A DNA stretch of 64,000 nt from Prorocentrum cordatum. Taxonomy: Eukaryota. Positions 13,065 to 43,342 of the stretch are shown here, one piece after another (within the stretch, counting starts at the first letter, position 1; each line of letters starts with the position of its first letter). The position numbers were made by a program, and so were the translations under genes. A model generated the notes under the pieces. That model was given only the letters and a program-made list of their open reading frames with translations. It was not told the origin of the DNA and did not search any database. The stretch covers positions 992,001-1,056,000 of the forward strand of contig CAUYUJ010000225.1 in NCBI GenBank assembly GCA_963575745.1, in the 5' to 3' direction.

Positions 13065-13083
13065 CTGGCTTGATTTAGGGCGG
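13065..13083 (+). repeat. Left terminal inverted repeat CTGGCTTGATTTAGGGCGG
   Basis: Exact reverse complement of 43324-43342. Confidence 0.85.
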
Positions 13084-13437
13084 GGTTTTCTGACTCAACC
13101 GACTCAACCTGTTTTTGCATCATCGTCATCATCATCGTCATCATCGTCGTCATGATATTCATCATCGTCCGCGTCATCGCCATCATCATCACCATCTCCC
13201 CATCATCGTCATCATCATAATATCCATCATCATCTCCTCGTCATCGTCATCATCATGTAGTGATGATGATGATTAAATCAAGACCCGCATGACGATGATG
13301 GCGGCGTGAAATGATGATGATGATGACGATGATGATGAAGCCGATGATTGCGATGATGATGGCGATGAAGCTGATGATGCTGGTGATGCTGAGGATGACG
13401 ATAACCTTCTTTCGGACTGCGCGGGCCGTGCTGAGTA

Positions 13438-16400
13438 CTAATCGGAAAGCCCCACAGCCTCCGTGGAAGCGGGCCACCGCATTTCGTCAAGCACCTCCGC
13501 GAAGTCGGGCAGCGCTACGGGGGCCCGTGCCAGGTGATCGGCCACGACGTGGTTCACGACGTTGAAGAACTCCTTCGGGCCAGGCGTGGCGTCGATCCTG
13601 CGCGCCCTGAACTCCCGAAAGACGTCGGAGCGGATCGCGACGGCGATCTGCAGCCTGCAGTCGTCTACGCGCTGTTGCACCTCGTGGTGGGTCGCGAAAC
13701 AGTCCTGGCAGTCCGCGGAGGCGCGGTGGTGCACGTTGTGCTCGAGGGAGGACAGGGTGCCATGTAGAAGGACCCAGGCTTTTGCTCGAGGGTGACGACC
13801 CTTCCGCAGGAGGCTGTGCTCGAGGGTGACGCCCCATCATGTGCTCCCAGGACCCCTGGGATCCCCACGTGCACAGGGCGCATCCCGAAAATCGTCACGG
13901 CCGCGTGCCACAGGGAGCATCCGCCATCTGTGTGCCAACCATCGTCCCGTGCGCCTGGTTGCATGAGCTGGATCGATGCGTGCGCGAACGCGTTGTCGGC
14001 GAAGTGCTCTGTCATGATGGGCTTTCCGTTCTGCTCGACGATGGCAGGTGGCATGCCGTCGGCTTTGACAGCCTCGCGCATTTTGTCTCCCAGCTGTTGC
14101 AGCCACGGGCGCATCTTCTTCCGCAGCGCTCGCACGAAGGCGGCCATGTGGGGCGAGGGGGTGATCTGCAAATTCCCGCCCTTGTTGAGGCTGCGGCACT
14201 TCGGGGGGCTTTCGTCGTCCACGATGCCTGCGACCTCTGTTTTCAAGCCCTTTGCCGCCTCGTCGCCTCGGACGCATTCGGCGACGGTTGCCCCCGTGTC
14301 CAGGCGCTCCTCGGCCAAGTTCTGCCAGCACGGGTCTCTCTGCAAGAAGCGGGGCAAGTCTGGGTCCAGCTCCGCCTCCGCTATCGTGCCCGCGCCGTTT
14401 TTTCCCCTGCGCCATGGAGATGCGCACGTCGAGCTGGGCGCCAGCCGGCTGCAGGAAGCGACGAGCCCTTAGACGACTGATTGTCGCTCTGGCGCCAGGG
14501 TGCCAAAGCAGGCAGCTCTCGGCGGCCTTCAACAAGTCTGGGGGGCAGTCTGCAAGTTCGTCAACGGGCCAGCGTCTTCGGCCGTCGAGTGCCTTCGCTG
14601 TTTCAGCCTTTAGCCAATCCTCGCCCGACCGCTTGAACCACTTCTCAAAGAAAGGCAGGTTGTCCAGCCACGGGGCGGGTTCCTGGTCCTCGTACTTGTA
14701 GAGGTCTCCCAGCCCTGGCTCCTTGCCTGGGACCCCCGAGACCCCCCTGCAGAAAACCACGAAGTCTTTCGGGCGCCCCCCCCCCCCCCCCTGGATGCCC
14801 GAGCGCGCCGCAAGGCTCTGGTTGGAACAACGCCTTGCGCGTGCACAACTCCGCCATCAGGCACCCGATGGACCACGCGTGCAGGTCCTCTGAGTAGCGC
14901 TGGTTCCCCAAAAAAACGTCTACCGCTCTGTAAGCGGGCGTGCATGCTCCGAGGTCATCGCAGGTCGGGCTGTAGCGCAGTTTCTTCTTCAACCTGCCGT
15001 GGGGATCCGCCATCTCCACACAGCCGAGGTCGGCGAGCACCACCTGCGGAGAGGGGCGGATGGAGGAGAGGGGAGCGACGGCGACTGAGCTCCCCCTGGA
15101 GGGAAGGGCGGGATAGAGGGCACGACGACGGCATCTCGGGGGAAGGGTGGAACCTCCCTTGTTAGAACTCAGTGTAAGACCTAACATGAAGGCTAGTGAG
15201 ATAAGCTGAGCTCTGACCTCATCTATGAGGGCGTCGTCGGAGCTCTAACATGCTATGTTAGAGCTCCATGGGAGCTCTAACACGCTATGTTAGAGCTCCA
15301 TCGGAGCTCTCACATGCTATGTTAGAGCTCCCTGGGGAGATCTGACATGCTAGGTTAGAGCTCCCATGGAGCTCTAACATGGTAGCACGTGCCATGTCAG
15401 AGCTCCCAGGGAGCTCGAACATACTATGTTAGAGCTCCATGTGAGCCCTGACAACTCGGGGTCTTAGTCGAAGGAACGACGATGATGACGAAGATGACGA
15501 CGACGACGACGAGGATGACGAGGATGACGATGATGACGAGGACGACGAGGACGACGACGACGAGGACGAGGAGGACGACGACGAGGACGACGAGGAAGAC
15601 GAGGATGACGAGGACGACGAGGACGACGACGACGAGGACGAGGAGGACGACGACGAGGACGACGAGGACGACGAGGACGGCGAGGACGACGAGGGCGACG
15701 AGGACGAGGAGGACGAGGAGGAGGAGGACGACGACGACGACGGCGACGACGACGGCGACGACGACGTCGACGACGAGCGCCTCGAAGGAACTCGGGATCT
15801 GCCAGTCGAACTGCAGCTTGCTCTTTGGGCACGGCGCGACGGGGTCCCATTCGCCAAGCTCACGTGATACAAGTGCCTGCTTCTCGAAGCAGCCGCGCGT
15901 CTGCGGCGATCCTCGCATCGGGATGTTCGCGGGCTTGATGTCGCAGTGAATGGGGCCCCTGTCGTGCATGTACTGGTGCCCTTCGAGAACGCTGTTCAGG
16001 ACGTGGCGCATCCCTCTCTGCGCGAAGGAGGACTGCTTGAGGCATTGGCGGGCATCGATCTCGAACAACTCGTACACGAGGCCGATGTGCTCCGTCCATT
16101 TCCAATCTATCCTTGGTACTGACTGTTGCAGTTCTCGGCGTGCTTTCTTCGGGACTGTTGCAGTTCCTGGGCACAACCTCCTGAAAAGGCCCACGTCGAG
16201 TAAGCGAACGAGACGCGGCGTGGCGCGTGACCTCCTCCAGAGCCCCTCCGACGGCATCCGTATTGAACCCCTTCTGCGCATCGCTGGGGTCGCCCCGCAG
16301 CATCTTGATCGCAAGGCCGGTCTTGTCGCCCCGTCGCGTGCCCAAGTAGACCTTGCCGAAAGAGCCCTGACCGAGCTCCCCTCCTTCCCGCTGCACGTCG

Positions 16401-17005
16401 TACTCGAGCGGCAGGTCCTCGCACTTGCCATTCTGTTTGTTTTGGCGCGCGTGCCCGACCGCGTCGAGCTTCAGTGCAAGTAGATTCACACGACCCTCGT
16501 CGTGGGACACCGCTCTTGGACCAGCAGACCCGCGACGAGCAGCTGCCGGTGGCGTAGGCTCCGATACCCCGTCCGCGGCGGGAACGAGCACCTTCCCCAG
16601 CGCGTCCTCTAGGGTTTCTCCTGCGACACCGTGGCCCTCGGCGACAGCTGGCTCATCTTCTGCAGCGTTAGCTGTTCCAGCCCATTTCGCGCACCCTGGC
16701 ACCCCCGCAGGCTTGCTCACATAGTCTTTCCAGTTGGCGCCCAGCGCAATCTTGAGGAGCCGCGTGCAGGTGTCATGCGAAACTGGCTTTGGCCACGTCA
16801 ACACACATTTGTTCTTCGTTACCTTCTCCAGCGTCACTTTTGCGGTCGGGGCCCCTTTTGCCACCCTGGCCATGCTATTGCTGCAGGTCTCCCTCAGCTT
16901 CTTGTTGATCTTGTCGTTGTTCGACCCGTCACCCTGCAGGTAACAGCCCCACTTATAGAAGAGAACCTTGTTCCTGTCGCGACCGCTGCCGCCCGAGGCA
17001 GCCAT
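13438..17005 (-). pseudogene. Ser/Thr protein kinase fused to a C-terminal 2OG-Fe(II) dioxygenase (AlkB-like); one intron, several frameshifts
   Basis: Kinase motifs: LGQGSFGKVY, AIK, HCDIKPAN, ADLG, TPAYRA, WSIGCLMAEL, CLLWHPGARAT. Dioxygenase motifs: GWHTD, AAVTIFGMR, PGSFYM-(G)TLSSLEHNVHH, IAVAIRS. Spread over ORFs 15860-17005, 15424-16431, 14645-15187, 13837-14760, 13665-14357 and 13438-13734. Confidence 0.75.
15044..15780 (-). other. GC-AG intron in the kinase gene
   Basis: Borders GAG|GCGCTC...CCGCAG|GTG. Removal joins SSFE|VVLADLG in frame. The intron is filled with (GAC)n and the GAGCTC satellite. Confidence 0.75.
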
Positions 17006-17579
17006 CGCCGCGGAGGCCCGCTGACGGCAGTGTCGCCCCTGCGGGCCCGCTAAGTTTCAGTGAACCGAGACGCCTGCGGGCCCCTCCTCCGTCCTCCTCC
17101 TCCCCCTGCGGCCGCTCCTCGGAGCGTTGCTTCCCGCGTCTTCCCTGCCCTGCTGCATCCCCATCCTGGCCCGCCCCTACAGAGCGCCGTAAGGATGCAA
17201 GGGCCTTGGCGGCATGGTATCTGTTGTTTATCCAGCTCCCCAGCTTCGGAACGGAAAGCGTAGGATGCAAGGGAACCCTTTGGAAAGGTAAACATCCTGA
17301 CTCTGCGCCCTGCCTGCGCCGCGGGCCAAGTGCGACGGATGGCGACGAAGGGATGACGGAGGACTATGTTCCTATCTGTACGCAAGGTGCCGTGTACTGC
17401 ACAGGCCAGAATGTGGCGCGCGTCCCATTACGAGAACGGAGGCGACGCCGCCAGCGCGCGACTGTTGCAGTCCAAAGTCAAACAAGTGGCAGCTCCACGG
17501 GAACAGGAGCGCGCGGGCTGGCTCCTGCGTCGGAGCTGTCGAATGATGTTGCAGCCGGTGCTCAAGCCTGTGCTCTGTT

Positions 17580-20500
17580 TCAGCCTGTATTCGGCTTCTT
17601 CTTCTTCGAGGCCGAGGAGTCGTCTGAGGACGAGGAGTCTGAGGTCGAGGGCGCGTCGGCGTCGCGCTGCTTACCCTTCTTACCCTTCTTCTTTTCATCC
17701 TTCTTGTCCTTCTTCTTATTATCCTTATTGTCCTTCTTCTTGTCCTCCTTCTTGCCCTCCTTCTTGTTGTCGTCCTTCTCCCCATCATTCGGGCCCTCCT
17801 TCGGGTCCTCCTTTGTCAGGCGCAACTGCACAGAGCGTGCAAGCAGGTCCTCGCTCACGAACACTATGGTGCTGCTCCCGAGCATGGCCTCGACGACACG
17901 ATCCACGAGAAACGGCTTGAGCACCTTCGCGTGGTGGTCGTCGAAAGTCAAGGCCAACACACTGCACCCGCTCTCGATGCAGCCGCGCGTGCCTGCGCCG
18001 CCCGCAGGCGCGCCGAAGTGCACCCACCTGGGCTTCCCCGCCTCGTGGCAGAGCTCCTTGAGGAGCTCGATGTCGCTGTCGTGCGGGAACCACGGCACCT
18101 CCGTTCCCGTGAGCTGGCGGTAGAGCTTCCGCTTCTTCACGGCCGCAGCCACGAGGGCCTTCTCGGGGCGGACGGCTGTTGCAGCTTCGTCGCGCGCCTC
18201 GGCGCCACAATCAGCGCCCTCGTCCTCCTGGAGAGGCCGGCAGTGCCCCCAGCTTCTCTCGCTCCTCGGCCTCCGCCTCGGTGACGCACTGGCCGACAGT
18301 GCTGGCCAAGCTGGTCTCCCGAACCTGCTTGGGCACGAGGGCGTGGCTCTTCTGCGGCAGGACAGGCACGTTCCTCATCACTTCGTTGAAGAGGGGGCTG
18401 CCCGCGTCCACGAACTGCCTGATCTTGGCCATTTGCTTCGGCTTCCTGCCCTTGTAGCAGAGCAACATGACCTCGTGCGAGCGCGAGTTCGCCAGGCCTC
18501 GCTGCCTCTGGAAGTGGCCGTACTGCTGCATCTGCTTCGTGTTGTAGGCGAGGTGGCATGTGACCGTGCGGAACTTGTTTGCGGCGAGGATCTTCTGGAT
18601 CTTCGGGAGGTTCGACTGCGCGCGACCCGTCAGCACCCACAGCACGCCCCGTCCACCGACCATCAGCGGTTCCAGGGACTTCAGGTAGCGTGTGAAATCC
18701 AACTCGTCCAGCGCGGGCTCACGGCGCGTGAGGCCTTGCCCCTCGAAGACGCAGCACAACTTCGCATGCTTGGCATCGTAGAAGCCCATCACTGATGCAT
18801 TATCTGTGAGGTTCTGGTATAGGCGGGTCTTAGTAACCGAAGCGTTGATACCCATGGCGCTGCCCTCCGCCGTGATCATGACGACCCGCGTATCCAGCAC
18901 AGTAGAGCACTGCTGCTCGCACAGCGCCTTGAAGTTATTCGCGTCGCTCGGGGAGACGTCGATCTTCTTCTTGTCCTCGGAGGCCGCCTCCGCTGTTCCA
19001 GCACCGCCCGCTGTTGCAGCACCGACCGTGTCGCTGTCTGCAGGCTTTTGCTCTGACGGTTCCTGGGGGTTTCCCACGAGGGAGTCGTACGCGATTTGGA
19101 ACTTCTCGAAGAACCTCTTGTTCACTCGCACGCTCCTGTGGAACTTGTCCATGTTGTAGCGCTCGGCGCACGGCTGGGTGAGGGCGCCAGAGATCTCCTG
19201 CTTGTAGAAGTCCTGGCCTATTTCGAGGAAGCGTTTCATCGCCAGGCGCAGCGCCTCGGTCGGCAGTGACTGCACCCAGGTCGGGTCCTTGTCAGGCCCC
19301 TCAGTCTTCTCGAAGAACTTGAGCGGCGAGTCGAGGTATTGCCTCGCCATGACCATGACTTTTCTCTCGGCGGCGTTCTCCTGTGTGTCTGTTGTTTCAG
19401 TGCTGTTGCAGCCAGTGCTCCCTTTGAACAAGTCTGGGTACTGTTTCAGAAAGTTCGCCACGTACTTCTTCGCCCACAAGATCTCGCCCACTGCCTGGCC
19501 AATGGTGGAGGCGCTGTACGGGTCCTTCACGCTTTTCCGCCACATCCGCGTCCGTCTTTGCGATGATCGTCCCAAGCTGTGTGGGCCTGTCCAGCAGATT
19601 GTCTCGCCCCCAACGGTTCACGGCGGCATCCAAAAGCAGCAATGCCCCCGGGCACTTTTCGAGAGCGACCCAGTTGACCATGTGCGCCTTGACGGTCCTC
19701 AGGCTGGGGCAGCGCAAAAGTCCACACTTTATGTTTTTTTCTGCAACCACGCCTGCACCTTCTCTGCCGAGGGGTTCCCGCCACCTGGCCCGCCGCTCTT
19801 CAAGATGTCCGCCGCACGCGCCGCGATGCGTATGAGGTTCTGGTTCTCGACCCCGAGAAAATCGCGCAGGCGCTCGTTGCGGGATCTCTGGTTGACAGAC
19901 CACTTGAACTTGTTCTCCTCGGCCTCCTCAGCCGCGCGCCCCGGGATCAGCGCGAACTCGAAGGGCCAATCCAGAATCAAGTCCTCCACCGCTTCTACGG
20001 CCTGCCCGTTGCCTTCCTCTTTCGCCCAGTAGTAGGCCAGCCAGACAGCGTTGACCACGACGTCACTGCCCAAACGCTTGAACTTGCCGATCTCGGGCAC
20101 AGCGGTCTGGTTCACGCTGGTGATCATGATGGGGATCTCGAACCCTTTTCTCAACCTGCTTCGGGATGTTCCAACGCCTGCCACCCTTGACCTGGCTTAG
20201 CGTCTCCACGATGCGCCGCTGTGGGTTACCCTGGGCTGTGCACTCGACGTCGCCAGCGACCTCAAGAGAGTCGTTCGCTGTTTCAGCCGCGTCGTCCGTC
20301 GGCACGTTCCGCATAACATGTCCGCAGCCACGTTCTCCACCTTGCCCACCGTGATATTCTCCTCCAGGAAACTGTTGTCGATGGGCGCCGTATACGCCAT
20401 GTTCAGATAGGCATTCCTGCGCTCGCCCTTCTCGTTACACTCTTCGATGATCCTGGCGAGCTTCTCCTGCAATGGAGTTCTCTCCTTGCTGTCGTTATTC

Positions 20501-20679
20501 GAGATCTTCTTCGACTGGTCCTCCTGCGACTTGTCTGGCTTCTCCCTCTTCGCCTGCGCGGCCCTCTCGGCGACGCGCTTCGGAATGGTCTTGAGAAACC
20601 GTTTGAAGTCAGTCTCGATGAGGGGGGAAACCTTGTCGGCCCAGAAGTCCTTGCACGGCTGCGCCGCGAAGCCGCTCAT
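17580..20679 (-). pseudogene. Large (~1000 aa) frameshifted gene; C-terminal half resembles a divergent beta-class N4C/N6A DNA methyltransferase fold, followed by a K/D-rich tail
   Basis: Chain of overlapping ORFs: 20197-20946, 20063-20314, 19729-20184, 19397-19903, 18211-19575, 17580-18152. Segments FTRYLKSLEPLM..GRGVLWV, HEVMLLCYKG, FPHDSDIELLKEL and VHFGAPAGGAG..GCSVLALTFD follow MTase motif order, but no canonical DPPY is present. Confidence 0.5.
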
Positions 20680-21034
20680 CGCGCTCAAGCGGGCTGGTTC
20701 AGCTGCGGGCTGGCCGTTCCACCTCGCGCGCCTGTTGCAGGTCGGGCTGGAGCCGTGGCGGGAATGGAATTGGGCAATGATGGAAGAAGAGAGGCCGTTG
20801 CAGCCGATGGAACGTCCAGAGGGCGGATAGGAAGCAGAGCGAAAATAGCCGCAACCAATTCTAGACGAACTTACGGATGTCGGAAGCCGCCCATTCCCTC
20901 GAAACAATGCGAAGATTAATGCATTTTCAGCGAGCGAGGGCGCCAAGAGCCTGTCGAGTTCTCCCCAGATGGCCTACCAGCTCTCGATGGGTGGGCCCAG
21001 AGATTTTGCAAGACCCCAACGGCACCAAGAAATT

Positions 21035-22407: not shown

Positions 22408-22709
22408 CGCGGCGAGCGTCGACGCCTGAGTCCGAGGCGGGGGGGGGTCGCCTGCTCAGGCTGAGGAGGAATACAGCCGAAACACTGGACCTTCGCACTG
22501 CAGACGGCTGAGGCTGAGGCAGCGACGCCGACGGACGGTGACGACGACGACGGGTCACGGGCCATGGGCCACCGGCCACGGGGGAGACCGTCGGACCGTC
22601 GGGGGGCGCCGCGCGATGACTCATCTGCGAGGGCCCTCCGTCGGGAGGCCCCTCGACCACTCGGCCCTCCCGACGGGAGTCGACAGCCAGGGCCCGAGAA
22701 TCCGATCGT

Positions 22710-23730
22710 ATGTTAGAGCTCCAATGGAGCTCTAACATCGTATGTTAGATTATGTTAGAGCTCCCTGGGAGCTCTAACATCGCATGTTAGAGCTCCGTGG
22801 GAGCTCTGAGGCGGCGGCGGCGGCGGCGGGTAGGTTAGAGCTACCAGGGAGCTCTAACATAGCATGTTAGAGCTCCCAGGGAGCTCTAACATGCTATGTT
22901 AGAGCTCCCATGTTAGAGCTCCCAGGGAGCTCTAAAATACCGAGCTCCAACGGAGCTTTAACGTAGCATGTTAGAGCTCAGTGGGAGCTCCCTGGGAGCT
23001 CTAACATGGTATGTTAGAGCTCCGTGGGAGCTCTAACATGGTTTGTTAGAGCTCCAACTGAGCTCTAACATAGCATGTTCGAATATGTTAGCTCCAGGAG
23101 TTCAAACATGGGTATGTTAGCCTTGAGCTCTAACATAGGATGTTAGAGATCCCTTTGAGCATCGCTCTATCATGGCATGTTAGATTATGTTAGAGCTCCC
23201 TGGGAGCTCTAACATCGCATGTTAGAGCTCCGTGGGAGCTCTGAGGCGGCGGCGGCGGCGGCGGGTAGGTTAGAGCTACCAGGGAGCTCTAACATAGCAT
23301 GTTAGAGCTCCCAGGGAGCTCTAACATGCTATGTTAGAGCTCCCATGTTAGAGCTCCCTGGGAGCTCTAACAAACCAAGCTCCAACGGAGCTCTAACATA
23401 GCATTTCGAGTATGTTAGAGCTCCTGTAGCTCCCTGGGAGCTCTAACATGGTATGTTAGAGCTCCGTGGGAGCTCTAACATGTCATGTTAGAGCCCCCAG
23501 GGAGTTCTAACATGGTATGTTAGCCTTGAGCTCTAACATAGGATGTTGTTAGAGATCCCTTGGAACTCTATCATGGCACGTTAGAGCTCCCATGGAACTC
23601 TAACATGCTATGTAAGAGCTCCTTGGGAGCTCTAACGTGTTATGTTAGATTTCGATGTGAGGGTTGTGAACTCTAACATGCTATGTTAGAGCTCGATGGG
23701 AGCTCTAGCATAGCATGTTAGAGCTCCCAT
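22710..23730. repeat. Palindromic ~32-bp satellite (ATGTTAGAGCTCCC-W-GGGAGCTCTAACAT-nnn)n with an internal ~435-bp duplication
   Basis: Tandem hairpin units. The GAGGCGGCGG..GGGTAGGTTAGAGCTACC landmark occurs at ~22808 and ~23243. Confidence 0.9.
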
Positions 23731-24149
23731 CGAGCCGCCCCCCCCCGTCGTCGTCGTCGCCGTCGTCGTCGTCATCGTCGTCGTCGTCGTCGTCCCATCG
23801 GCCCCCCACCCCCCTCCTTTTAAGCGCACATAAGTAAGGAAACATGTCCGAACACGGCCGCGCTCTCGCACGCACCGTTGCCCTGTCCTCGACCTCGAGA
23901 ACGAAGGCTTCCCCCTTGAAAGGCGGGGGCACAGGGGTGGGGCCCTGTCTTCGACCACGGTGAAACATGGGGGTGGGGCCCTGTCTTCGACCACGGTGAA
24001 ACATGAATAGGGCGCGGCCCTCCCCGCCCTCGCGGGGCGGCCTTGCTCCCTGGGGCGCGGTCGGGGATCAGGGGCGGAGGGGATTCAGGGACTTCTGAAT
24101 TAGAACTAGAAGGTGGGGAGGAGGAGGAGGAAAGGAGGAGGGGGGAGGA

Positions 24150-24443
24150 AGGCTTCACCGCCCTCCACGCACCGCCGACTTTCATCATGTATCCGTCCCG
24201 TGCTGGCGAGCTCTTCACTGAGAAAGTACCCACTCCTGGCAATATGAAGACACGCTTCTCGTTGAGCTCCGTAATGAGTGCTATGGCCAGCGATTGAAGC
24301 ATGGCCGCCGTGGTAACCAAGTTGGCGCCGCTCCCAACCGATATCCTCTTCGTCAACGCCTGAGGGGAGATCGATTTATGGCCGTGAGCGCGGTATACCG
24401 CGATTTCGCTCTTGCCACGGAGGTTCAAGACCTTCGGGGCCAT
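24150..24443 (-). CDS. HU/IHF-like histone-like protein (dinoflagellate HLP type); 3' end truncated or spliced
   Basis: MAPK...ISPQALTKRIS...MLQSLAIALITELNEKRVFILPGVGTFSVKSSPARDG matches the HU pattern (l.l.GfGtF.v..r.AR.G). Confidence 0.7.
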
Positions 24444-24950: not shown

Positions 24951-24974
24951 ATCTGGCATCTGTCCTGACATGTT

Positions 24975-29660: not shown

Positions 29661-29776
29661 TTCCAGCCCCCTGCGCCGCGTCAGCGCGGCGAAAGAGCCA
29701 GCGCGCGAGCCAGGCTGCACGCCTCCGACATCGGCTACCAGACGCCCATGCGAGGTCACTTGTCCTGCTGCTGAGC

Positions 29777-33200: not shown

Positions 33201-34732
33201 GGGGAACTAGCTTGGGCCAATATGCCAAGATGATGTAAGGATGCGAATCCTGTCGCGGATCTGCTGGGGTGCTCGGGGCTCTGTGGGGTCCTGGGTGTGG
33301 TGCCCTAGGGCCCTAGGGCCCTCTCTGGTGGCCTCTTCCTCCTCGCTTGCTGCTTCCAGCTGGTGGCGACCAGGGAGGTACTGGGCACCAGAAAGCCGAA
33401 GGCTAGAGGCTAGAACAATTCGAACCAGGCAGCCCAAGCATCCAAGCGCCTAGCGCCTAGCGGCCTGGAGAGTGAGACAATCTGCATAAGGAATGCAGTT
33501 GATCTGAATGGGCGTCTTTCTCCTCATCTCTGAGATCAGGGATGCATGGGAGCGCCTGCGCTCGCTGTTCCAGCCATGCGCAGCACATGCGCGAGTCCTA
33601 TCGTGGGCCCATTCCCACTCGCGCCAGTAACAGATGCTCTCGCGGGCACCTTAGCTCAGAGCGTGATGCGCTCCACCCCCCTCCTCCCACCTGGACTCCT
33701 CCTCCTGACCTGGGGGGCGGGGGGGCGGGGGGGCTGTTGCAGCGGAGGCGCAGCAGGCGGCGAGGGGAGACGAGTCGGAGAAGCTCGCCGTTTTGTTGTC
33801 ACGCTTCTCTGCATAAACAGCTGTTCCTACGATGCCTAGCCCTATCGAACCTCGGGCGCACACCCGCATGCCTATCACTAGGAGCCTAGTGGACAGGCTT
33901 CTGCACGCCGAGAGACGGAGGGCGGCGCTCCTCTGGGGAGAGCCTGAAAGGGAAACTACAAATTACCTGCCTCCAGCACGACAACGGCGGCACGCCGAAC
34001 GGAGGCGCTGTTGCAGCGGAGCGCTGGCCACAAAGACTCTGCCGATTCCGTACAACCGTCCCCATCCCAGCCCCTTCCCATTCCCCTCGCTGCCATCCCC
34101 CTGAGTAAGTCAACTGGCAACCGGAGGCCAGCGAGCTGGATGCCAGGGTCCCTGAACGAGTGGCACGCTCCTAAGATGAGACGCGCGAGAGGACAATACC
34201 ACGCACAATACATGTACTTCGCGTTGACATGTGTGCTTATCATATACAAACACACACACCTCAGTCGTGCAGCCGGCTCAGCATCAAGGAAAACCGCAAG
34301 ACAAACCCAGTACGCACAGCGTCAAAGCGTATGCGGTGGGCCGCACAGGCGTGCCACTGTTACAATAATAAGGCAAACTTCAGGTCACCCGCGCCGAAGG
34401 GTATCTGACAGACAGTCACCACCCGACGCGACTGGAAGCACTTCGCCGACCGGGTCAGGCGCTCGAGAACTTGCGGTGTTCCGTCATGCTAGCCGCCCGC
34501 AACCCCACTCGAAATGTGTGCGAGGGTGCCGCGTGCTCGAATTGCGTGCGCATCTGTTGCATAGCGGAAAGCAGGGCTCATCCGAGAGGCGCATCTGTTG
34601 CAGGTCGGCCAAAACTGGCGCTGACAGAAGCAATGCCTAACCAGAACTGGCGCGTCGCAGTCGACTGTTGCAGTCTACCAGAAGCGCGCTCGGAGAGGCC
34701 CCGCGATTTACTGTGACAGTCTGTGCAAGCTG

Positions 34733-37071
34733 TCAGCTGCTCCCAGACGCGGGCTCGTCCCACCGAGGCTCCCAGAGTTGCTTTGCCTCGTCAGGGTGCG
34801 CGTAATACATGGGCGCGACTCTGTCGTGCAGCGTTTTTGGGTGCGGGCGACTGTAGTAGTTGCCATTGTACTGCACCTGCGCGTCCACGAGGATCCCGAA
34901 GATGTGCTCCCTGAAACAATAGCCATTGATGTTCTGCCTGATGCCGCCGATCCAATACTTGTACTGGCGCCTGTGGAAGTCCCATTCTGCCTGGATCACA
35001 ACGTGCGCGTAGTATTGGTGCTGCGGTTGCACCAGGCAGAAGACGATGTCTCCTTTCTGCACGGTGGACGCCTCCTTCACGACGCAGCCAGGGCCCGCAT
35101 CCGCTGTTACAGCTTCGATGGGGTGAAAGGTGCAGAAAACGTGCGACTGCACCAGAGGCCACATGGAGTTTCCCGAGCTCGGGTACCACACGGGGAAGCC
35201 GGCTGCGAGGTACTCACGTATCATCTTGTTCCTCTCTCCCCGCAGCCTTAATTCCAGAACTAACTTGTCGGGGTCCCACGCTGCACCCTCGACCAGCGTC
35301 CAGTCCTTGTGGAGCACGGGAATGGCCTCGTGCGGGGACGCCAAAACAAAGGGTGGAAGGCGCTTCGGCGTGCTCTGCTCGACGACTGCGGCCTCCTCGG
35401 GGGGCAACTTGGCGATGGACTTGCAACCTTTGGACTGCTCCGCCGTCTGACCGACCTTGCACGTAGTGAGAAGGCTGCCTTGGCTCTTGCAGCTATGCGG
35501 GCATTCGTCGTCTGTTCCGCCTGCCGCTTAAGAAGTCTCCCGCGCTCGATAGGCTCCTCGCTGTGCTCCATGGTGGCAGAAACCGTCGTCGCCCGTGTGG
35601 CTGACCCACGTGGAGCCTGGGATAACAGCTGGCGCTGCTCAGCCTCCATGTGTTCCTGCCGCGCTCGCTCTGGCTCGGGCTTGCAGTGGTCCGCCTCTTG
35701 TCGCAGCTGCTCTCTCGTCATCGGCGGCGGCGGCGGCGCGACCCTGCCCGATAAATCGATTGGCCGTGGCGGGCGGGCGGGCATCCGTTTCGGAAGAGGC
35801 TGGCCCTCCGTGGGCGTGTCACTGACCCTCTTCGCCGGCGCGCGCTTGGCCAACGGAGTCTTTTGTCCCCAATCATCCTCCTCCTGCCGAAGCGGAGACG
35901 TGAGAGGAGCACCCATCCCACGCCGTGCATGGCTTTCTGGCCGCGTCCGTGCCGTGACGGGAGCATCCCGCGCCGCGCTGCGGGCGCGCTCTCTGCCTCT
36001 GCGGGTACGGTCACCAGCCTCTCGGGGGGAGTCGCTGTCGGAGATCACAATCGTGTGGTGCGGATCACCCGGCTGCTCGGCCTGGGCCCGCGTTCTGTCG
36101 GCCTCCGACGGAAGCTCCGCCAGCCTGAGCCCGCTCCTCGCCGCCATCGGCGGGCCACTAGCGCCTGCTCCCTCACGAGCTGTTGCTGCCTCTCGCCGCC
36201 CGCTTGACGCTGTTGCAGCCAACTGGCGCTGGCGCGGCGACGCCTCTCTCTGGCGACTCCGGGCGTTTGACAGGCGCCGCTGCTGCCTCACCCACCGCTG
36301 CAGATCCCACTGGTACCGTACACAGTCTTCGATCCCAGTCGCCCCTGGCGGGTTCCGACGCTCCCAGTCTATCATCTCAATGTTCCACCTGATCTCCTCA
36401 TCGCTCAACTGCCTGCGTGCGGTCGCGTATAGGCATCCGTAGGGTCTCTCCTGGCCCTCCCAGACTCCTGGACGGTCGAAGATCATGATGCCGTCATTGT
36501 CCAACTGCTGCTGCTTATGTTGGACCCAGCGCAAGCGGCGCTCATGATCCAACGCCTCATCGTGTTCGCCCTCCTGACGCGCTAACTTTATATTCAACTC
36601 GCACCGCTCCCTCTGGCTCCGCAAGCCTTTGCGCTGGTTGTGCAAGTAATCCCAGGTGCCGACCTGAAGACTAGCCAAAACTGGAGAAGCTGTAGTACAA
36701 TTCGACGTCTAACTTGATAGGTTACACCTCCCTGGGGATATCCGACATGCTATGTTAGAGCTCCCTGGGATATCCAACATGCCATGTAGGAGCTGCGTGG
36801 GAGCTCTAACATGGTATGTTAGAGCTCCCTGGGAGCTCTAACATCCTCTAACATGCCATGTTAGATCTCCATGGGAGCTCTAACATGATATGTTAGAGCT
36901 CGAATGGAGCTCTAACACCCTCTAAGATGCCATGTTAGAGCTCCAGGTGAGGTCTAACATGGCATGTTAGAGCTCCAATGTAGCTCGAACGTCCTCTAAC
37001 CTGCCATGTTAGAGCCCCATTGGGAGCTCTAACATGGCATGTTAGAGCTCCATGGGAGCTCTTATCAAGCA

Positions 37072-37114
<43 letters not shown>

Positions 37115-37230
37115 ACTACAGCTAGCCCAGATTTGGCTGGTCTGACCTGGCGCCCGTTGCCCTTGCCCTTGCGCGCGTCGTCGTTGCCCTTGCCCTTGGC
37201 GCCCTTGCCCTTGCCGCCATTGCCGACCAT
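34733..37230 (-). pseudogene. Two-exon gene with a C-terminal S24/S26 (LexA/signal-peptidase fold) peptidase domain; frameshift near 35400-35470
   Basis: Exon 1 is 37147-37230 (MVGNGGKGKG...NGRQ) and exon 2 starts at 36663 (VGTWDY...). Motifs SSGNSMWP, GDIVFC, YYAHVV and EHIFG in ORF 34733-35407. Confidence 0.65.
36664..37146 (-). other. GT-AG intron containing the GAGCTC satellite and a poly-G/C run
   Basis: Borders CAG|GTCAGA...CTTCAG|GTC; phase-0 in-frame join. Confidence 0.7.
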
Positions 37231-37829
37231 CTGCGCTGTTGCAGCTGGGGCGGGCTGGGAACAGCGCGCGCGCGGCGCGCGGGCAGAGTAAGGAGTCGAG
37301 CCGACAGCTACGGAGACGAGGGAGACAGAGAGAGGGAGAGAGATCCCCAAAGCTTTCGGATGAGATCACTGCAGAGGTTTCGATGGGGATGGGAAGGTTG
37401 AACTGTCTCAGCCGCGGCAAAGGGGGGGGGATCATCGCTCTGGAGGTTTCGATGGGGATCGCTCGCATGCACGCGAACACGTAGGTGGACTGGGGGCTGG
37501 ACTGGACAAGTGCGGTGGAAGATGGCCTCGTCGCTACTCCTGCCTCGTCCTGCTCCCCCCTCCTCCTTCAGCCCCATCACCCCCCTCATCCCCCTCCTCC
37601 TGAGGGCGGCCCTGGGCGCCCGATGCTTCCCGCCCCCACCCTTTCACCCTCGCCGCCGACAACCGCCGCCACGGGCAACGGCAGCCCCCCCCCCCCCCAT
37701 CGGCGACCTTCAGGTCCCCAGCGGCGGGCAGCGCCGCCAACGGCAGCGGCGCCCACTGGGGGGCGCAGGGGAGGTAAGGTCGGACGACGTTGGGCGGCGC
37801 TCTTTTTAAACAAAACTGGCACGATCGCA

Positions 37830-38290
37830 ATCTATGGGGCGGGCTACTTACTCACGCTGTCACAGCCTTGGTGCCCGGGCACAGTGCTTCAACCGTCGCG
37901 TCGAAACGCAGAACCCAATTCCTCGGGCTGTTGTGGAGCTGCTTGACGGCTTTGTCGACACCCGCTTCTTCTCCCTAGCGGCACAGCACGCAAGTTCGCT
38001 GCGCCAGGCGGGGATTGGCCTGCTTCTTGAAGAACTTGCAGAGCTTCCTGGGGCTCTTGTAATAGATCACACACCCACTCGGCGTCTGGGCAAGCGCTTG
38101 CAAAACGCGGGGGCAGTGTAGGCAGGTCTTCCGCGAGAGCCTCTGTTACAGCCACGTGGTAGCTCTTGCTCGAGTTCCGAAGCTTCTCCGTGTACTGGAT
38201 GCCTTTGGGAGAATCCTCCCGTGCAAAGTCAGTCGGCGTTGTGGAGAAAAAAATATCCCGGCAAAACAACCTAACAGCCATGTGTAGGAC
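37830..38290 (-). pseudogene. Coding-like fragment, possibly the last exon of the transposase gene
   Basis: TTPTDFAREDSPKGIQYTEKLRNSSKSYHVAVTEALAEDLPTLP... with a CAG|G at 38291; it follows a repeat-filled gap. Confidence 0.3.
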
Positions 38291-38309
38291 CTGGCCGGGG
38301 CAGCCGGCC

Positions 38310-39170
38310 GCCCTCCCCTCCTGCTCGTCCTCCTCCTCCTCCTCCTCCTGCTCGTCCTCGTGTTCCTCCTGCTCGTCCTCTTTCTCCTGCTCCTCCTCCT
38401 CCTCCTCCTCCTCCTCCTCCTCCTCCTCCTCCTCATTTTTCTCCTGCTCCTCCTCCTCCTCCTCCTCCTCCTCCTCTTCCTCCTGCCGTCCTCTTCTCTC
38501 CTCCTCGTCTTGCTCGTCCTCCTCCTCCTGGTGCTCTCTCCTCCTCCTTCCTCCTCCTCCTCCTCTCCTCCTCCTGGTGGCCTCGTTCTCCTTCTCCTTC
38601 TCCTCGTCTCCTCCTTCCTCCTCCGTCCCTCCTCCTCTCCTCCTCCTCCTCCCTCCTCCTCCTCCTCCTCCTCCTGGTAGTCCTCCCCCTCCCCTCCTCC
38701 TCCTCCTCCTCCTCTTCCTGGTCGCCCTCGTTCTCGTCCTCCTCGTCTTGCTCGTCCTCCTCCTCCTCTCTCCTCCTCCTCCTCCTCCTCCTCCTGCTCC
38801 TCCTCCTCCTCCTCCTCCTCCTCCTCCTCCTCCTCCTCCTCCTCCTGGTGGTCCTCCTCCTCCTCCTGGTGCTCTCCCCCCCCCTCCTCCTCCTCATCCT
38901 CGTCCTCCTCCTCCTCCTCCTCCTCCTCCTCCTCCTCCTCCTCCTCCTCCTCCTCCTCCTCCTCCTCCTCCTCCTCCTCCTCCTCCTCCTCTCCTCCTCC
39001 TCCTCCTCCGTCCGTCCTCCTCCTCCTGCTCGTCCTGGTCGTCCTCCTCCTCTGCTGTCCTCCTCCTCCTCCTGCTCGTCCTTCTTCTCCTGCTCCTCCT
39101 GCTCCTCGTCCTGCTCCTGCTCGTCCTCGTCCTCCTGGTCTTGCTCGTCCTCCTCCTCGTCGTGCTCTTG
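38310..39170. repeat. (CCT)n low-complexity tract
   Basis: Directly visible. Confidence 0.95.
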
Positions 39171-39184
39171 CCCCTGCTGAAAGT

Positions 39185-39595
39185 GTGGTCCAGGAATGGG
39201 AGTTCTGGGAAGTCGAAGAGCACGAAGTTGCCTACAGTTGGCTACGGGCATCCAAAATCTGGCCCGGGAATGGAGTTCTGGGAACTCGAAGACCACGAAG
39301 TGGCCTACAGTTGGCTCCGGGCATCCAAAATGTGGCCCGGGAATGGAGTTCTGGGAACTCGAAGAGCACGAAGTGGCCTACAGTTGGCTCCGGGCATTCA
39401 AAATGTGGCCCGGGAAGGGAGTTCTGGGGACTCGAAGACCACGAAGTGGCCTACAGTTGGCTCCGGGCATTCAAAATGTGGCCCGGGAATGGAGTTCTGG
39501 GAAATCGAAGAGCACGAAGTGGCCTACAGTTGGCTCCGGGCATTCAGAATGTGGCCCGGGAATGGAGTTCTGGGAAGTCGAAGAGCACGAAGTGT
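39185..39595. repeat. 73-bp tandem repeat, about 5.5 copies
   Basis: Unit GGAATGGAGTTCTGGGAACTCGAAGAGCACGAAGTGGCCTACAGTTGGCTCCGGGCATTCAAAATGTGGCCCG. Confidence 0.9.
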
Positions 39596-39607
39596 GTGAC
39601 TGTTGGC

Positions 39608-42600
39608 TTAAAATGAGCTCTGCGGCACCCTGTCCGGCACCCGCCCAGACCCCCCTGTGGAGTGATCTGTGAGCTCTTTTGAGACCACTAGAAACCTATC
39701 AGTCTTCGCTGTTAGGTAAAAAGCTCCCGCGAACGCTGCTACAATCTGGGCGGCGATGCAATAGTCGGTGTCAGCTGTTCCCGCCCAGACTACGTTTCCC
39801 TTCTTCCCCTGGGCCGTATGACGGGCAAGATAGTCCAGGAAGTCCACCGGGTCCTGAAACACCTTGAAACGCAAGCGCTGCGCCTTGTTGCGAGCGCCCA
39901 CATCTACCATGCGAGCCAGCATGAGCCCAGCGGGGCGCGGGGGGGGGGGCAGCAAGTAAGCGTCACGGCCCGCAGCTGGCCTGGCACTGCGCGGGACTTT
40001 CTTCTCTCGGGTACTCCTGGCCTTGGCGGCGGCCTTTGCCCCTCCAAGATTGCGCTCTCGGATCTTGGCCTCCCGCTTGGCGACGGCGGCGACGACTTTT
40101 ACAGCGGGCCCGACTGGATCTGCGCCGCTCGCCTGGGCCGCCCCCTCAGCCAGCGCAGCGAGATCGGGGGCGCCCTCCGCGAGAAGGCGGGCGCGCTTGC
40201 TCGGGGAAGCGGCCGCCATGGCGTCGACGGCAGCTGCTCGCCTGCGCCCGAAGCCTACCTCTGTCCGACGTGCTGCCCCAGGCTCCCGCGTGCTTCCCAT
40301 GTCGCGCCTCTCGGCCCTCCTCAGCGGCACGATCTTCCCCTGCGCGACCTCATGTAGCTTGAGCACATGCCTGTACCAACGACTGGCGGCAGAGCTCTCA
40401 TTGTCGTCCAGCCACGCGCGCAGCAACCTGCTGGAGGGCGCCTGGTCCACGAGCGTCCACTCCTCGACGGACACGTCGAGGAGCCGCGCCCTCTCGGGGC
40501 AATGCACCTCCGAGAAACGGCGGAATCGCCTCTCCACGCTGCCCGTGCTCGTTTTCCATACAGAGGAAGAGCTCCACGAGGCGACGGCCGCTGGGGAGCT
40601 CGGGCCACTCCGCCGCAGCGCGGCCCCAAGCCTGCCGCGTGGTGCCCCCGTCTCGATGATGCACCTCGGCACGCAGCAACATGTGCCGCAGCTGGGAGAT
40701 TGCCTCCTGCTCGGGGAGGTCTGCCGCCTGGCAGATGCGCTTCAAACAGGCCTCGGCTTCTGTTGCATGCTCTGTTGCAGACGGGGACAGGGGGGAAGGC
40801 AAGCGAAAGGCTGTAAAGGCGTGCAACCAAGAATGCTATGGCCGATATAGCTTCACGTTCTCCTTCACATTGGCCGCGACCCCCTGCGCTCGTCGAAGAG
40901 CCGCGTGGACGGCTTCGCGGGCTCGGGGCTCCGTTCCCCAATCGCCGATGCCAACGGTCTGGACGCCAGTGCCGCACGCGAACCGCTTCGTGGCCTTCAG
41001 AAACCTGAGGGTGACGCCAGTAAACGCGTTGGGGATGGCCAGAATATCCCCCTGGACGAACAATGTATCCAGCTTGGAGAGGAAAGCGGCGGCCCTGGAT
41101 TGAACGCTGGCAGCGTCGGGGTTGCTCTTGTCTCCGGTGGCGACCCAGGAGTAGTGCTCCGCGCTCAAGTCGGCCAGCAACCCCCCCAGGAGCAGGCGCG
41201 AACTGTTCTCGCCCCCGAGCCCTTCCAGAATCTGTCGGGCGAGAATGCGCCGATCTTTGTCCTTCCCCTGGGACTCCACTCCGAGCGCTTCGAAAATGAC
41301 TTCCCAACGCCGACTTTCCCGTGCTGAGGGCCTCGCCCGACTGTTGAAACGCTGGGGGGCCCAGCCGAAGTTTTTGACGAACGCGACGCCGTCTGCCACC
41401 AGCTGCTGCTCCCCGAGTGTGTTGCGGAACACGGTGGAGGTAGTCAGGAACTTGGCCAGACTTGGCGGCTTCTTGCCCGTTACCAGCAGCTCGTCCGTGG
41501 CCGTTATTTCGCTGTCTCCTTTCATCGAATTGGCCAGAACCTTCTGGGACGAGTGAGACTCGTCCCACGCGTGAAACGCCAGCCCAGGGAACGTAGCTGT
41601 TGCAGCCAGGGGTACACTTAGATCCGCCCCATCGCTGCACCACGCCCGAGTCTCCTGTCGCACATGCTTGTGCAAGTCCCCGTCCAGCTCCCCGCCTGCC
41701 GTCTGGCACGCGCGACGGGCGCACTCCTCCAGCATGGAAGCCTTGCCGTCGCAGCCCATGCCCCGCGGGAACTCCCGCGCCCCGATCGCCCGATCCACGA
41801 TCCAGGGCCCTCTGGGGCCCAGCTGTTCCAGCCAGCCTGCCTTGAGACCGTAGCTTGGGCGGAAGTCCAAAGCCTTCGGGATCGACCGCAGCGCGGTGCC
41901 AATTTCGACCTGGTACGTGCGGTCGAGGCCGTCCGCAGCCAAACGAGAAACAGCACCATGGTTGAGGATCCTCTGCGTGATGATCTTCTCGTGCTGAGCC
42001 ATGGTGGTCACCAGCCTTCGGCGCTGCCGACTAGACTCCAAAACTTGGCGGTCGCCCCCAACGAACGCATCCCGCCACGCGTCGAAACTACTGAAGGAAC
42101 TGGTTGTCTCCAACATTGCACGGGTGGCGACCGCTGCGCGGCGACCAGGGCGCTGGTCGGCGGCGCGGACGACGGCGGGCGCAGGCGCCACGGCTGTTGC
42201 AGCTGCCGCAGCTGATGCAGACGTTGTGGGGAACACAGACACGGGGAGACCCTGGTGCGCACCTTCCGCTCGAATCCGCTCTTTCCACGCCGCTTCTGCT
42301 GCCTGGTGCTCCTCGCACTGTGCGTGGCGCACGAGGTTTTCCTTGCGTTGGAAACTCGCGGATCCCTGGCCCATGGTGGAATGGCAACGAGCGCCCTTGA
42401 ACGCCGAGCAGAACAAGCAGACTGCAAATCTACCACCTACGCAGCCTATCCAAGTTTCACTCTTCAGTGTTACTGGATTCGTCGCAGACATCGAGGCGCT
42501 CCACTTCTCCTTATTCTTCCAAAATTTGCAAGCGCCGCAGGTGGAGACGTGCTTTGGGTAGTCGTGGCTGGCGACGCGTTCCTCCAGGGTCATGGACAAC

Positions 42601-43040
42601 GAAGGCGGGAACTTCTCGACTACTTTGCTCAGGGCGGCCTTCGCCTTCGCTCTTGCAGCCGCGGCTGCCTCGCTGCTGGAGCCGCTGTCCTCTTCGGAGC
42701 CGCTGTCGGAGCCGCTGTTGGAGCCGCTGTCCTCTTCGGAGCCCGCTGTGTCGGCAACTCCGTCGGCGCCGTCGGCGTCGGACCCTGCGTCAGCATCGGC
42801 GTCCGAGCTGTTGCAGCTGCCACGACTTGGCGAAGCTGCCCTCGACGAGGCCGCCGAGGCCGCGCGGCTCGACGGGGCCGCTCTCGACGAGGCCGCGCGG
42901 CTCGAAGAAGAAGCAGGGCTCGGGGAAACATGGCTCGGGGAAATCAAAGAAGAGGACGAGGCCGCAGGGCTCGGCGAGGCCGCAGGGCTCGGGGAAACCG
43001 AAAGAGGGTTCGGGGAAACCGCCCCAGCGGACGACGACAT
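39608..43040 (-). pseudogene. hAT-superfamily (ZNF862-like) transposase, split by frameshifts near 40670-40840
   Basis: N-terminal finger CLFC...RHAQCEEH. Catalytic-like LAADG and WCSDGA. WDESH at the CxxH position and PQRFNS at the TRW position. Dimerisation-domain-like TSTGSVERRF...ERARL in ORF 39608-40672. Located ~300 bp from the right TIR. Confidence 0.75.
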
Positions 43041-43323
43041 TATTTTGAGCCAAGTCCTACGGGCCACAACGGTGACGATGGTGATGGCGATGGCGATGCT
43101 GATGGTATGGATGATGATGATGATGGGGATGGTGATGATGGTATGGTGAGGGCGGTTGTGGTGATGATGGTGATAGTGATGATGCTGATTCTGGATGTGA
43201 TGAGTACCACCATCATCACCATCACCATCGCCACCACCATCAGCACTACGATTTGATAACCACCATCATTACAATCGTCGTCGGCATCAAAACACAAAAA
43301 CACTCAACCGACTCAACCAAAAT

Positions 43324-43342
43324 CCGCCCTAAATCAAGCCAG
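43324..43342 (-). repeat. Right terminal inverted repeat (CCGCCCTAAATCAAGCCAG)
   Basis: Exact reverse complement of 13065-13083. Confidence 0.85.

Follow-up and report, generated by a model that had tools for sequence, protein, structure and literature searches.

Two copies of a 19-bp sequence, CTGGCTTGATTTAGGGCGG, lie in inverted orientation at the two ends of a 30.3-kb interval of the Prorocentrum cordatum window (the whole 64-kb stretch of DNA that was analysed). The left terminal inverted repeat (TIR; end L1) occupies 13065–13083 on the plus strand and the right one (end R) 43324–43342 on the minus strand. Short terminal inverted repeats are a trait of hAT elements; these two are identical at 19 of 19 positions, and with three mismatches or fewer the window holds no other match (expectation by chance 0.04; two or more matches in 0 of 100 shuffles). 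Next to each TIR lies a 17-mer, ACTCAACCGACTCAACC, with two ACTCAACC units, at 13093–13109 and at 43302–43318 (chance 0.01). Both copies are on the plus strand, so that its orientation to the TIR is reversed at one of the ends. The octamer occurs six times in the window, four of these at the two ends, and its doubled form may be a transposase-binding site. Further inward are unstranded fold-backs, (CAT)n/(ATG)n on the left (13117–13405, with 82-nt arms at 13117–13198 and 13308–13389 that are 73% complementary) and (GAT)n/(CAT)n on the right (43072–43290, with arms within 43072–43189 and 43200–43246). The inverted pair 30 kb apart, the common subterminal sequence and the (GAT/CAT) tracts inside both ends had been noticed in the initial annotation, and all three hold. 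The 19-mer had no match in metagenome contigs or in viral contigs; one match in a cyanobacterial MAG is regarded as a chance match.

Both outer edges of the TIRs are exact breakpoints in pre-existing sequences. On the left, copy C of a local tandem repeat (12357–13064, unstranded) is truncated at the TIR, and its homology to the paralogous copy B ends exactly at the 13064/13065 junction. On the right, a minus-strand fragment of a LINE-like (reverse-transcriptase element) ORF (43343–44053) is cut at the TIR: residues 97–326 of P0126 and 224–451 of P0127, the latter carrying Pfam RVT_1, align to 44035–43346, the homology stops one codon from the TIR (43343), and the window lacks about 240 residues of its C-terminus. 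L1 and R are real transposon-type termini. The two broken targets are unrelated, and the missing half of neither was found in the window, the interval included. The flanks read AGTGCAAT and CCAAAAGC, with no duplication at any length. The 8-bp target-site duplication (TSD), already reported as not visible, is missing because the two edges sit in different targets, and any original duplications are unreadable from this copy. The interval therefore did not arrive by one simple insertion, and the proposal of one large mobile unit keeps its termini and loses the single insertion event, the more so with the third end described below.

This third terminal module (L2; 28692–28965, plus strand, left-end orientation) is decayed, its TIR-like 19-mer matching at 15 of 19 positions, whereas L1 and R do not differ at all over 19 + 17 nt. 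It also has GGTTGA, two copies of GTTTTTG and a (GAT)n/(CAT)n fold-back. In a tile scan with 75 nt of the right end, L2 gave the best non-self score (27); L1 scored 20 and the background no more than 17. Its start at 28692 is 14.65 kb from the right end. No inner right-type end was found inside the interval, nor was target continuity or a TSD found for the L1/R or the L2/R pair. Because of the decayed end inside it, the L1–R locus reads as a composite.

The gene next to R (37852–43040, minus strand; 76% identity to P0003 by tblastn) starts with an ATG at 43040, inward of the right TIR by 284 bp, and reads inward. It is a pseudogene with two TAG nonsense codons (40838–40836 and 37977–37975), both substitutions and not indels, 1-nt frameshifts near 40550 and 38111, and a 1466-bp repeat insertion at about 38249–39710 that is absent from the related loci L001, L010 and L025; with these lesions, the copy is evidently no longer able to supply the enzyme. 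An AlphaFold model of the family, built from 137 sequences (pLDDT 89.1), predicts the fold of the Hermes hAT transposase. The top 11 Foldseek matches were all Hermes (E 1.4e-5 to 2.1e-4, probability 1.00), and VIA-align gave Z 17.8–19.9 over 400–421 residues, the next fold reaching Z 7.1. The best alignment (Z 19.9, rmsd 3.3 Å, 400 residues) places model residues 29–586 on Hermes 110–609 and spans the RNase-H-like core, the helical insertion domain and the C-terminal part. The transposase assignment made from the right-end sequence thus gains the backing of structure prediction, for a gene that is dead here. The catalytic residues of Hermes are D180, D248 and E572; nearly invariant in the present family, as a candidate triad, are the D of ADGLDR, the D of SDGAD and the E of (L/V)ERRF, and the window copy keeps ADGLDR, CSDGAD and VERRF.

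The family is invisible to Pfam hAT models and has an uncharacterised C-terminal extension. Dimer_Tnp_hAT (PF05699), the model of the C-terminal hAT dimerisation region, matched weakly in one of 18 members (E 0.023), and no Pfam hAT domain was found in 31 further members; the structural alignment reaches Hermes residue 609. An N-terminal zinc finger of BED type is a further trait of hAT transposases; a zf-C17orf113 zinc finger was matched in 10 of the 18 (best E 4e-7; in the window copy E 1.7e-4 and 21.8 bits, under the cut-off of 29.5), and by its N-terminal finger the transposase would be of Buster type. The family comprises 1061 clusters at 50% identity, many with ORFs intact at 1100–1290 aa including the conserved extension of about 350 aa, and the genomic relatives are intronless. 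In-frame stops occur in L004 (three), L007 (four), L010 (seven), L009 (two) and L013 (one), so that disabled relatives at several loci fit a mobile family that decays. Neither TIR 10-mers nor ACTCAACC were found in any of 34 related loci. Around the gene in six near-full-length loci, whose flanks are short (0.1–2.4 kb), no bracketing inverted repeat was found apart from a 15-nt pair (87%) in L007, the left arm of which lies on the first matched codons. Homologues of the window ORFs were not found in these flanks of up to 2.4 kb, and cargo synteny was not seen there. In L006, L007 and L010, the next downstream gene carries a spliced-leader relic and is unrelated to the window ORFs.

The remaining ORFs of the interval, all on the minus strand, constitute the putative cargo. 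Closest to L1 is a pseudogene (13441–17056) for a fusion of a CMGC-type protein kinase with a C-terminal domain that has conserved WHTDGG...H motifs; it shows at least four frame changes and a repeat-filled gap of about 760 bp at 15124–15886. Its kinase label stands on matches to Pfam Pkinase fragments and to CDK8/MAPK profiles (1e-19 to 1e-20); 60 homologues (transcript-like clusters) of about 520 aa were found. The C-terminal domain, earlier called a dioxygenase, has H365, D367 and H414 invariant in 45 sequences, and it matched no Pfam family, 2OG-Fe(II) dioxygenases of the TET/JBP or another kind included, and no PDB sequence beyond the kinase part. A run of ORFs with coding-like codon usage (17583–20973) includes an open 468-aa ORF at 18214–19617 (codon model score 100.7), for which the MTase label found no match in Pfam at E≤5 or in PDB at E≤1; the same thresholds gave nothing for the ORF with an SGNSMWP motif at 34736–35527 (score 42.8), first called an S24/S26 peptidase. 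The supposed GIY-YIG protein (31990–32346) reached E 0.13 in Pfam and had no relevant PDB match. A possible HU resemblance of the ORF at 23823–24518 survives in part, as a weak match to Bac_DNA_binding (E 1.8e-3; 18.9 bits, below the cut-off of 22.4) and to HU-beta in PDB (E 0.4). The paralogous genes D1 (25397–26557) and D2 (29780–30625) lie in DNA that is 88% identical between 25429–26406 and 29673–30660, and a 482-aa ORF of unassigned function occupies 35263–36708. The initial view of these genes as a writer/eraser/cutter/packager toolkit mostly fails, with the kinase supported, the HU likeness weak and the other labels unsupported.

Scattered among the ORFs are seven arrays of an unstranded 32-bp palindromic satellite (15239–15453, 22709–23728, 24970–25206, 26483–26958, 27991–28663, 29067–29491 and 36708–37062). 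All 56 matches to its unit fall within 15240–37050, and the 33.7 kb beyond the interval hold none, as the claim of a confined satellite family had it; in L001, this satellite also comes after the transposase gene, which is the closest relative of the one here. A 12-mer repeat common to both flanks is, conversely, absent inside. Inside the interval, no reverse transcriptase/endonuclease ORF or strong leader relic was found, versus several in the right flank, where a perfect spliced-leader relic lies at 53412–53432 (minus strand) and weaker ones at 59682 and 63045. The perfect relic marks the window as DNA of a dinoflagellate.

The best explanation, held at slightly under even confidence, is that one or more large DNA transposons of the hAT superfamily left the interval behind as a dead remnant. 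Two intact, cognate-looking termini and a Hermes-fold gene reading inward from the right end form the layout that such an element would have; it would measure no less than 14.6 kb and might reach 30.3 kb. The present L1–R interval would be a composite or recombinant, produced by recombination between two long copies, by events like those of Ac/Ds (an adjacent deletion or alternative transposition), or by recruitment of the upstream end L1 past the decayed L2. With a transposase supplied in trans, cutting would take place at the TIRs and, as is usual for hAT enzymes, leave hairpins on the flanks; any DNA enclosed by two functional ends would move. We infer that the ORFs other than the transposase gene, together with the satellite specific to the interval, are putative passengers and not host genes in situ.

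Dinoflagellate genomes are known for tandem unidirectional arrays, and throughout the window, coding ORFs (by the codon model) and spliced-leader relics are found on the minus strand. The cargo is indeed all on the transposase strand, as first stated; since minus-strand coding continues throughout, the shared strand is not evidence of cargo. Together with the 60 transcript-like clusters of the kinase family, as in a host gene family, this speaks against an element. It leaves room for a less likely, though serious, alternative, in which an ordinary unidirectional gene array was hit separately by two or three members of a shorter hAT family that have since lost their inner parts; the ORFs now enclosed may then be host genes in place and the right element may be 28692–43342 or shorter. 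The different targets at L1 and R, the third end at 28692, and relatives of the transposase gene that sit beside genes with leader relics and have no TIR nearby agree with such a history. It needs, however, several separate deletions removing one inner end and both target halves, and the identity of L1 and R next to a changed L2, the satellite confined to the interval and linked to a transposase gene in L001, and ends that abut the first and last gene of the interval with no spare DNA all stand against it.

The dead-remnant reading has a more ambitious form, which is unlikely at present: the L1–R interval would be one member of a family of ~30-kb hAT 'macrotransposons' moving pieces of dinoflagellate gene arrays. 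The left end of a 14.6-kb element, L2–R, would have decayed, and the transposase would then have turned to the upstream L1, capturing the intervening 15.6 kb.

Slamovits and Keeling are said to have described, in 2008, dinoflagellate retrogenes with relict spliced leaders. The relics in the right flank recall these, as does a possible degenerate one (43044–43062, minus strand) 3 nt upstream of the transposase ATG, differing from the 21-nt leader by three substitutions and two deletions. It is improbable, all the same, that the transposase-like gene arose by retro-copying from an expressed and possibly domesticated host family of hAT origin, as a pseudogene that lies beside an unrelated transposon end by coincidence. 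The relic, another upstream of the family gene in L005, the many clusters with long intact ORFs and the size of the intronless family would suit it. The leader match is weak on its own, such loose matches numbering four in the window versus a mean of 1.85 in shuffles; no poly(A) remnant was found after the stop; and a hAT-fold gene directed inward, at this distance from a breakpoint TIR, is the arrangement that autonomous elements normally have. Retroposition does not account for the TIRs, nor for the precise breaks at their outer edges. Least probable is an assembly chimera of a real long element, entered via the copy flanked by the tandem repeat and left via the one flanked by the LINE, with flanks and possibly interior mixed from two copies, for which the mismatch of the flanks despite perfect ends, the repeat-rich interval with its satellite arrays and long homopolymers, and frame changes often at homopolymers can be cited. 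Nothing speaks directly against it, though the two nonsense codons are substitutions, which means that some of the decay at least is real.

In nature, hAT elements normally measure a few kb, and their TIRs usually start with CAG or TAG. The remnant proposed here shares with hAT transposons such as Hermes the whole-length fold, a short TIR (19 bp), repeated subterminal motifs and an inward transposase gene. It differs from the norm in its size (14.6–30.3 kb), about eight extra ORFs, internal satellite arrays, the missing 8-bp duplication, the ~350-aa extension, the blindness of Pfam hAT models to it, and a TIR starting with CTGG. ToxhAT of wheat-pathogenic fungi, described as a 14-kb hAT-like cargo transposon (PMC12506042), is likewise far longer than its transposase and carries other genes; its movement and horizontal transfer are documented in that account, whereas the present locus is one copy in a dinoflagellate, of perhaps double the size. 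Alternative transposition and macrotransposons of Ac/Ds are described in maize and rice (PMC4270019, PMC9910405, PMC3744419, PMC3239180). There, termini of separate nearby hAT elements cooperate, giving deletions, duplications, composite units and mismatched flanks (PMC4270019), and L1 ... L2–R looks like the layout reported there, in which a fractured end accompanies a full element. Those cases were followed genetically, whereas the history of this locus is read from a single sequence. Fungal Starships and other giant cargo transposons also span tens of kb with many passenger genes (PMC11623301, PMC13004909). Starships use a tyrosine recombinase 'captain' in place of a DDE hAT transposase and are not known to have TIRs of this architecture.

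If the preferred reading is true, a dinoflagellate hAT element of 15–30 kb with several passenger ORFs would extend the size range of cut-and-paste transposition, the best-known cargo-carrying hAT relative, ToxhAT, being given as 14 kb (PMC12506042). The 19-bp TIR, the doubled 8-mer, the decayed third end and the two broken targets are the handles that the locus offers. In the macrotransposon form, this would be the largest natural hAT element known, spreading multi-gene blocks that include a fusion of a kinase with a possible dioxygenase and an HU-like gene. In either form, the locus would point to a DNA-level route, beside retroposition, for moving blocks of genes in the very large genomes of dinoflagellates.

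The interval from 13065 to 43342 is bounded by a perfect 19-bp terminal inverted repeat (TIR), CTGGCTTGATTTAGGGCGG at 13065–13083 (+) and its exact complement at 43324–43342. Allowing up to three mismatches, the window has no further match; 0.04 would be expected by chance. On the inner side of each TIR lies the 17-mer ACTCAACCGACTCAACC (at 13093 and 43302), which is on the + strand at both ends and therefore flipped relative to the TIR at one of them; four of the six copies of the octamer ACTCAACC in the window fall within the two 17-mers. An imperfect (CAT)n/(ATG)n fold-back of 200–290 bp is found inside each end. The initial annotation had noticed the inverted repeat pair, the common subterminal sequence and the similar (GAT/CAT) tracts, and all three are borne out. 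Its caveat also holds, as the 8 bp outside the ends, AGTGCAAT and CCAAAAGC, do not match at any length and show no 8-bp target-site duplication. The 19-mer has no match in metagenome contigs or in viral contigs; a single match in a cyanobacterial MAG, with no 17-mer beside it, was taken as chance. With high confidence, we take both ends to be true termini of a mobile family.

An 809-aa open frame at 40839–43265 (−) adjoins the right end and has 61 relatives, mostly of 1000–1290 aa. Its closest relative, the database protein P0003 (76% identity), places the gene by tblastn at 42626–40539, 40555–39710, 38248–38111, and 38112–37855, with an ATG at 43040 and the natural stop at 37854–37852 (−). 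Pfam hAT models do not detect the family beyond one Dimer_Tnp_hAT match (E 0.023), the zinc finger zf-C17orf113 is weakly matched by 10 of 18 members, and searching PDB sequences with the family profile yielded nothing at E ≤ 10. A first full-length model of P0003, built from 18 sequences, was of low quality over the catalytic part (pLDDT 61) and had no Foldseek match at E ≤ 1e-3. It was superseded by a core-only model from 137 sequences, drawn from the 1061 transposase-family clusters identified by a profile search of 1.84 billion representatives. The core model has a pLDDT of 89.1, Hermes transposase accounts for every one of its top 11 Foldseek matches, and VIA-align superposes it on Hermes at Z 17.8–19.9 over 400–421 residues along the whole chain, the next fold reaching Z 7.1. 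From these matches the protein is predicted, with high confidence, to be a hAT-fold transposase, in agreement with the transposase-like gene proposed earlier at this end.

The family has a conserved C-terminal extension of its own of about 350 aa (P0003 residues about 770–1119; window 39710–37852, −). The extension ends in an alpha/beta domain; in the first, poor model, Foldseek matched this domain weakly to a BRCT domain (7qro, probability 0.66). The window copy carries five lesions: nonsense TAG codons at 40838–40836 and 37977–37975, where the metagenome locus L001 has GAG and TCA, respectively, one-base frameshifts near 40550 and 38111, and a 1466-bp repeat block at about 38249–39710 that is absent from L001 and from two other related loci, L010 and L025. 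A 73-bp satellite (5.7 copies, 93% matches) and a long (CCT)n tract at 39180–39594 make up this 1.47-kb insertion.

Relatives of the transposase are encoded in 34 metagenome loci with flanks of at most 2.4 kb. TIR 10-mers and ACTCAACC occur in 0 of the 34, and in six near-complete loci no inverted repeat brackets the gene except a 15-nt, 87% pair in L007, the left arm of which lies inside the coding match. L001 is the closest locus (80% DNA identity), has part of its 3′ flank in common with the window, and ends in the same palindromic satellite as is found in the interval. By tblastx of all 34 loci against the window, no credible match was found outside the transposase gene except low-complexity repeats and the L001 3′ flank. 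In L006, L007, and L010, the transposase gene is followed by a spliced-leader relic, and the gene that comes next is no relative of the window ORFs; in L010, the C-terminal part of the transposase recurs at 6566–6790, after a leader relic, as if in a second, shorter gene. In-frame stops, one to seven each, in L004, L007, L009, L010, and L013 indicate that many copies of the family are pseudogenes. Among the matches listed are 24 sequencing runs, the best of which contains 0.38 of the words of 39700–43400, and no RNA run.

Both outer edges of the interval coincide with breaks in homology. A local tandem repeat borders the interval on the left: copies A and B lie at about 9.0–10.4 and 10.5–11.4 kb, and copy C forms the flank itself. 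Aligned to copy B, the homology of copy C continues through ...GGATGCT..TGCAAT and ends exactly at 13064/13065, and copy B beyond this position reads GGATCCACTG...; this continuation, looked for right of 43342 as an empty-site test, was not found there. The right-flank ORF (43337–44053, −) has a good codon-model score and matches two database proteins, P0126 and P0127, one of which carries Pfam RVT_1. Residues 97–326 of P0126 and 224–451 of P0127 align to 44035–43346, and homology ends one codon from the TIR. Both proteins extend about 240 residues further, and the C-terminal 240 residues of this LINE-like ORF are nowhere in the window, including left of 13065 and of 28692. Since homology ends at the TIR edges on both sides, both are exact breakpoints in older sequences, as is typical of transposon termini. 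The missing half of each target is not on the opposite side, in the interior, or in the rest of the window. The left and right targets are unrelated, which explains the missing target-site duplication and means that the interval is not the product of a single simple insertion. The in-phase joining of two open frames on removing 13065–43342 was given no weight, because the left frame is the tandem repeat in translation and scores poorly for codon usage. The left-flank repeat (10130–10400, 11010–11280, 12950–13064) also has a 79-nt segment in copies B and C, absent from A and bounded by the direct repeat GG(A/G)GTGACGTG(T/C)TG, as if a small duplication or insertion.

A looser search identified CTGGCTGGGATTAGGGCTG at 28692 (+), a 15/19 match to the TIR, with GGTTGA, two GTTTTTG, and a (GAT)n/(CAT)n fold-back downstream, as in the architecture of the ends. 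When the 75 terminal nt of the right end were compared with all 120-nt tiles on both strands of the window, this site was the best non-self match (score 27; left end 20; background ≤17). Two intact ends and a decayed one are thus present at the locus. The third end has left-end orientation and lies 14.65 kb from the right TIR; its subterminal motif has the right-end orientation, and its flanks show no target-site duplication. Two paralogous genes (25397–26557, −, and 29780–30625, −), 88% identical, lie one on either side of it.

The interior genes had been read as a DNA-modification toolkit, which adds nothing that the evidence supports. The kinase label is sound: Pfam Pkinase matches the kinase-gene fragments in the window and 45/45 aligned members of a family with 60 homologues of about 520 aa, and the profile matches CDK8 and MAP kinases at about 1e-19. 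The window gene has at least four frame changes. The C-terminal 300 aa have conserved WHTDGG and two histidines and no match in Pfam or PDB; the "dioxygenase" label is a motif-level guess. As seen at 13441–14468 (−) and in the kinase-family alignment, the proteins of this large family combine a CDK/MAPK-like kinase with an uncharacterised domain of ~300 aa with invariant W-H-x-D-G-G and histidines, which may be of 2OG-Fe(II) oxygenase type. The HU-like label is reduced to a weak resemblance (PDB E 0.4), GIY-YIG (E 0.13) is not upheld, and the ORFs labeled MTase (468 aa) and S24/S26 peptidase match nothing in Pfam or PDB; one 33-residue match of the 468-aa ORF to viral contigs carries no weight. 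A 15-G run (14790–14805) lies inside the kinase gene at a frame change and about 40 G (+ strand, about 37063–37105) beside the last satellite array; these long homopolymers may be real or assembly-error hot spots.

By a codon-usage model trained on confirmed coding parts, minus-strand ORFs score as coding both within the interval and outside it, the latter at 5542–6795, 43337–44053, 51887–53146, 58231–59526, 60533–61864, and 63267–63998, together with a reverse-transcriptase ORF at 48486–50780 (−). The shared strand thus characterises the region as a whole rather than the interval: the minus-strand ORFs proposed as cargo on the transposase strand are present, but their strand is no evidence for cargo. 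A LINE-like element with Exo_endo_phos and RVT_1 ORFs occupies 48486–51990 (−), and the ORF at 63267–63998 has a zinc knuckle. Window GC is 51–67%. With the dinoflagellate spliced-leader motif, a perfect 21-nt relic was found at 53412–53432 (−) and weaker, degenerate ones at 59682–59702 (−) and 63045–63065 (−); they mark retro-copied genes in the right flank. Taken with the GC content and the one-strand coding, the relics identify the window as nuclear DNA of a dinoflagellate. Reverse-transcriptase and endonuclease ORFs and strong leader relics are absent from the interior; the right flank has several. The 32-bp palindromic satellite is confined to the interval, as noted initially (56/56 matches between 15240 and 37050). 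At several arrays the borders consist of (ACG)n/(CGT)n microsatellites and G/C homopolymers (15453–15777, 23728–23800, 28965–29045), suggesting that the repeat unit is larger and compound. A tandem repeat of the 12-mer CAACCATCGGGA lies on both sides of the interval (11786–12091 and 55560–55770) and not inside.

Tentatively, and at a little short of an even chance, we read the locus as a dead composite large hAT element, the interior being element content. That the 30.3 kb may once have been one mobile unit is favoured by several observations: the intact ends are identical while the internal end is decayed, no inner right-type end or target remnant is found, the satellite is restricted to the interval and accompanies the transposase gene elsewhere, and the outermost genes lie directly against the ends. 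Counting against it are the two different targets, the presence of a third end, the absence of any second copy and of shared cargo order among the relatives, and a kinase family that resembles a host family. The last of these would suit a host gene array with separately truncated ends, the foremost alternative, which we consider less likely given the identical intact ends and the confined satellite. A retro-copied pseudogene beside an unrelated end is improbable. Least probable, by a shade, is an assembly chimera, in which the assembly would have joined two copies and so produced the mismatched flanks.

For a composite hAT element, the mismatched flanks might also have arisen if two long copies recombined, or by adjacent deletion or alternative transposition of the sort reported for Ac/Ds (PMC4270019; PMC9910405). 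No giant or cargo-carrying hAT element in dinoflagellates is described in the literature searched, and for Alexandrium the portion consulted of one paper reports only short RepeatMasker hAT fragments (PMC3229502). The nearest known system in that literature is the fungal ToxhAT of 14 kb (PMC12506042), whereas the dinoflagellate interval, possibly a dead composite hAT element, measures 30.3 kb between intact ends.
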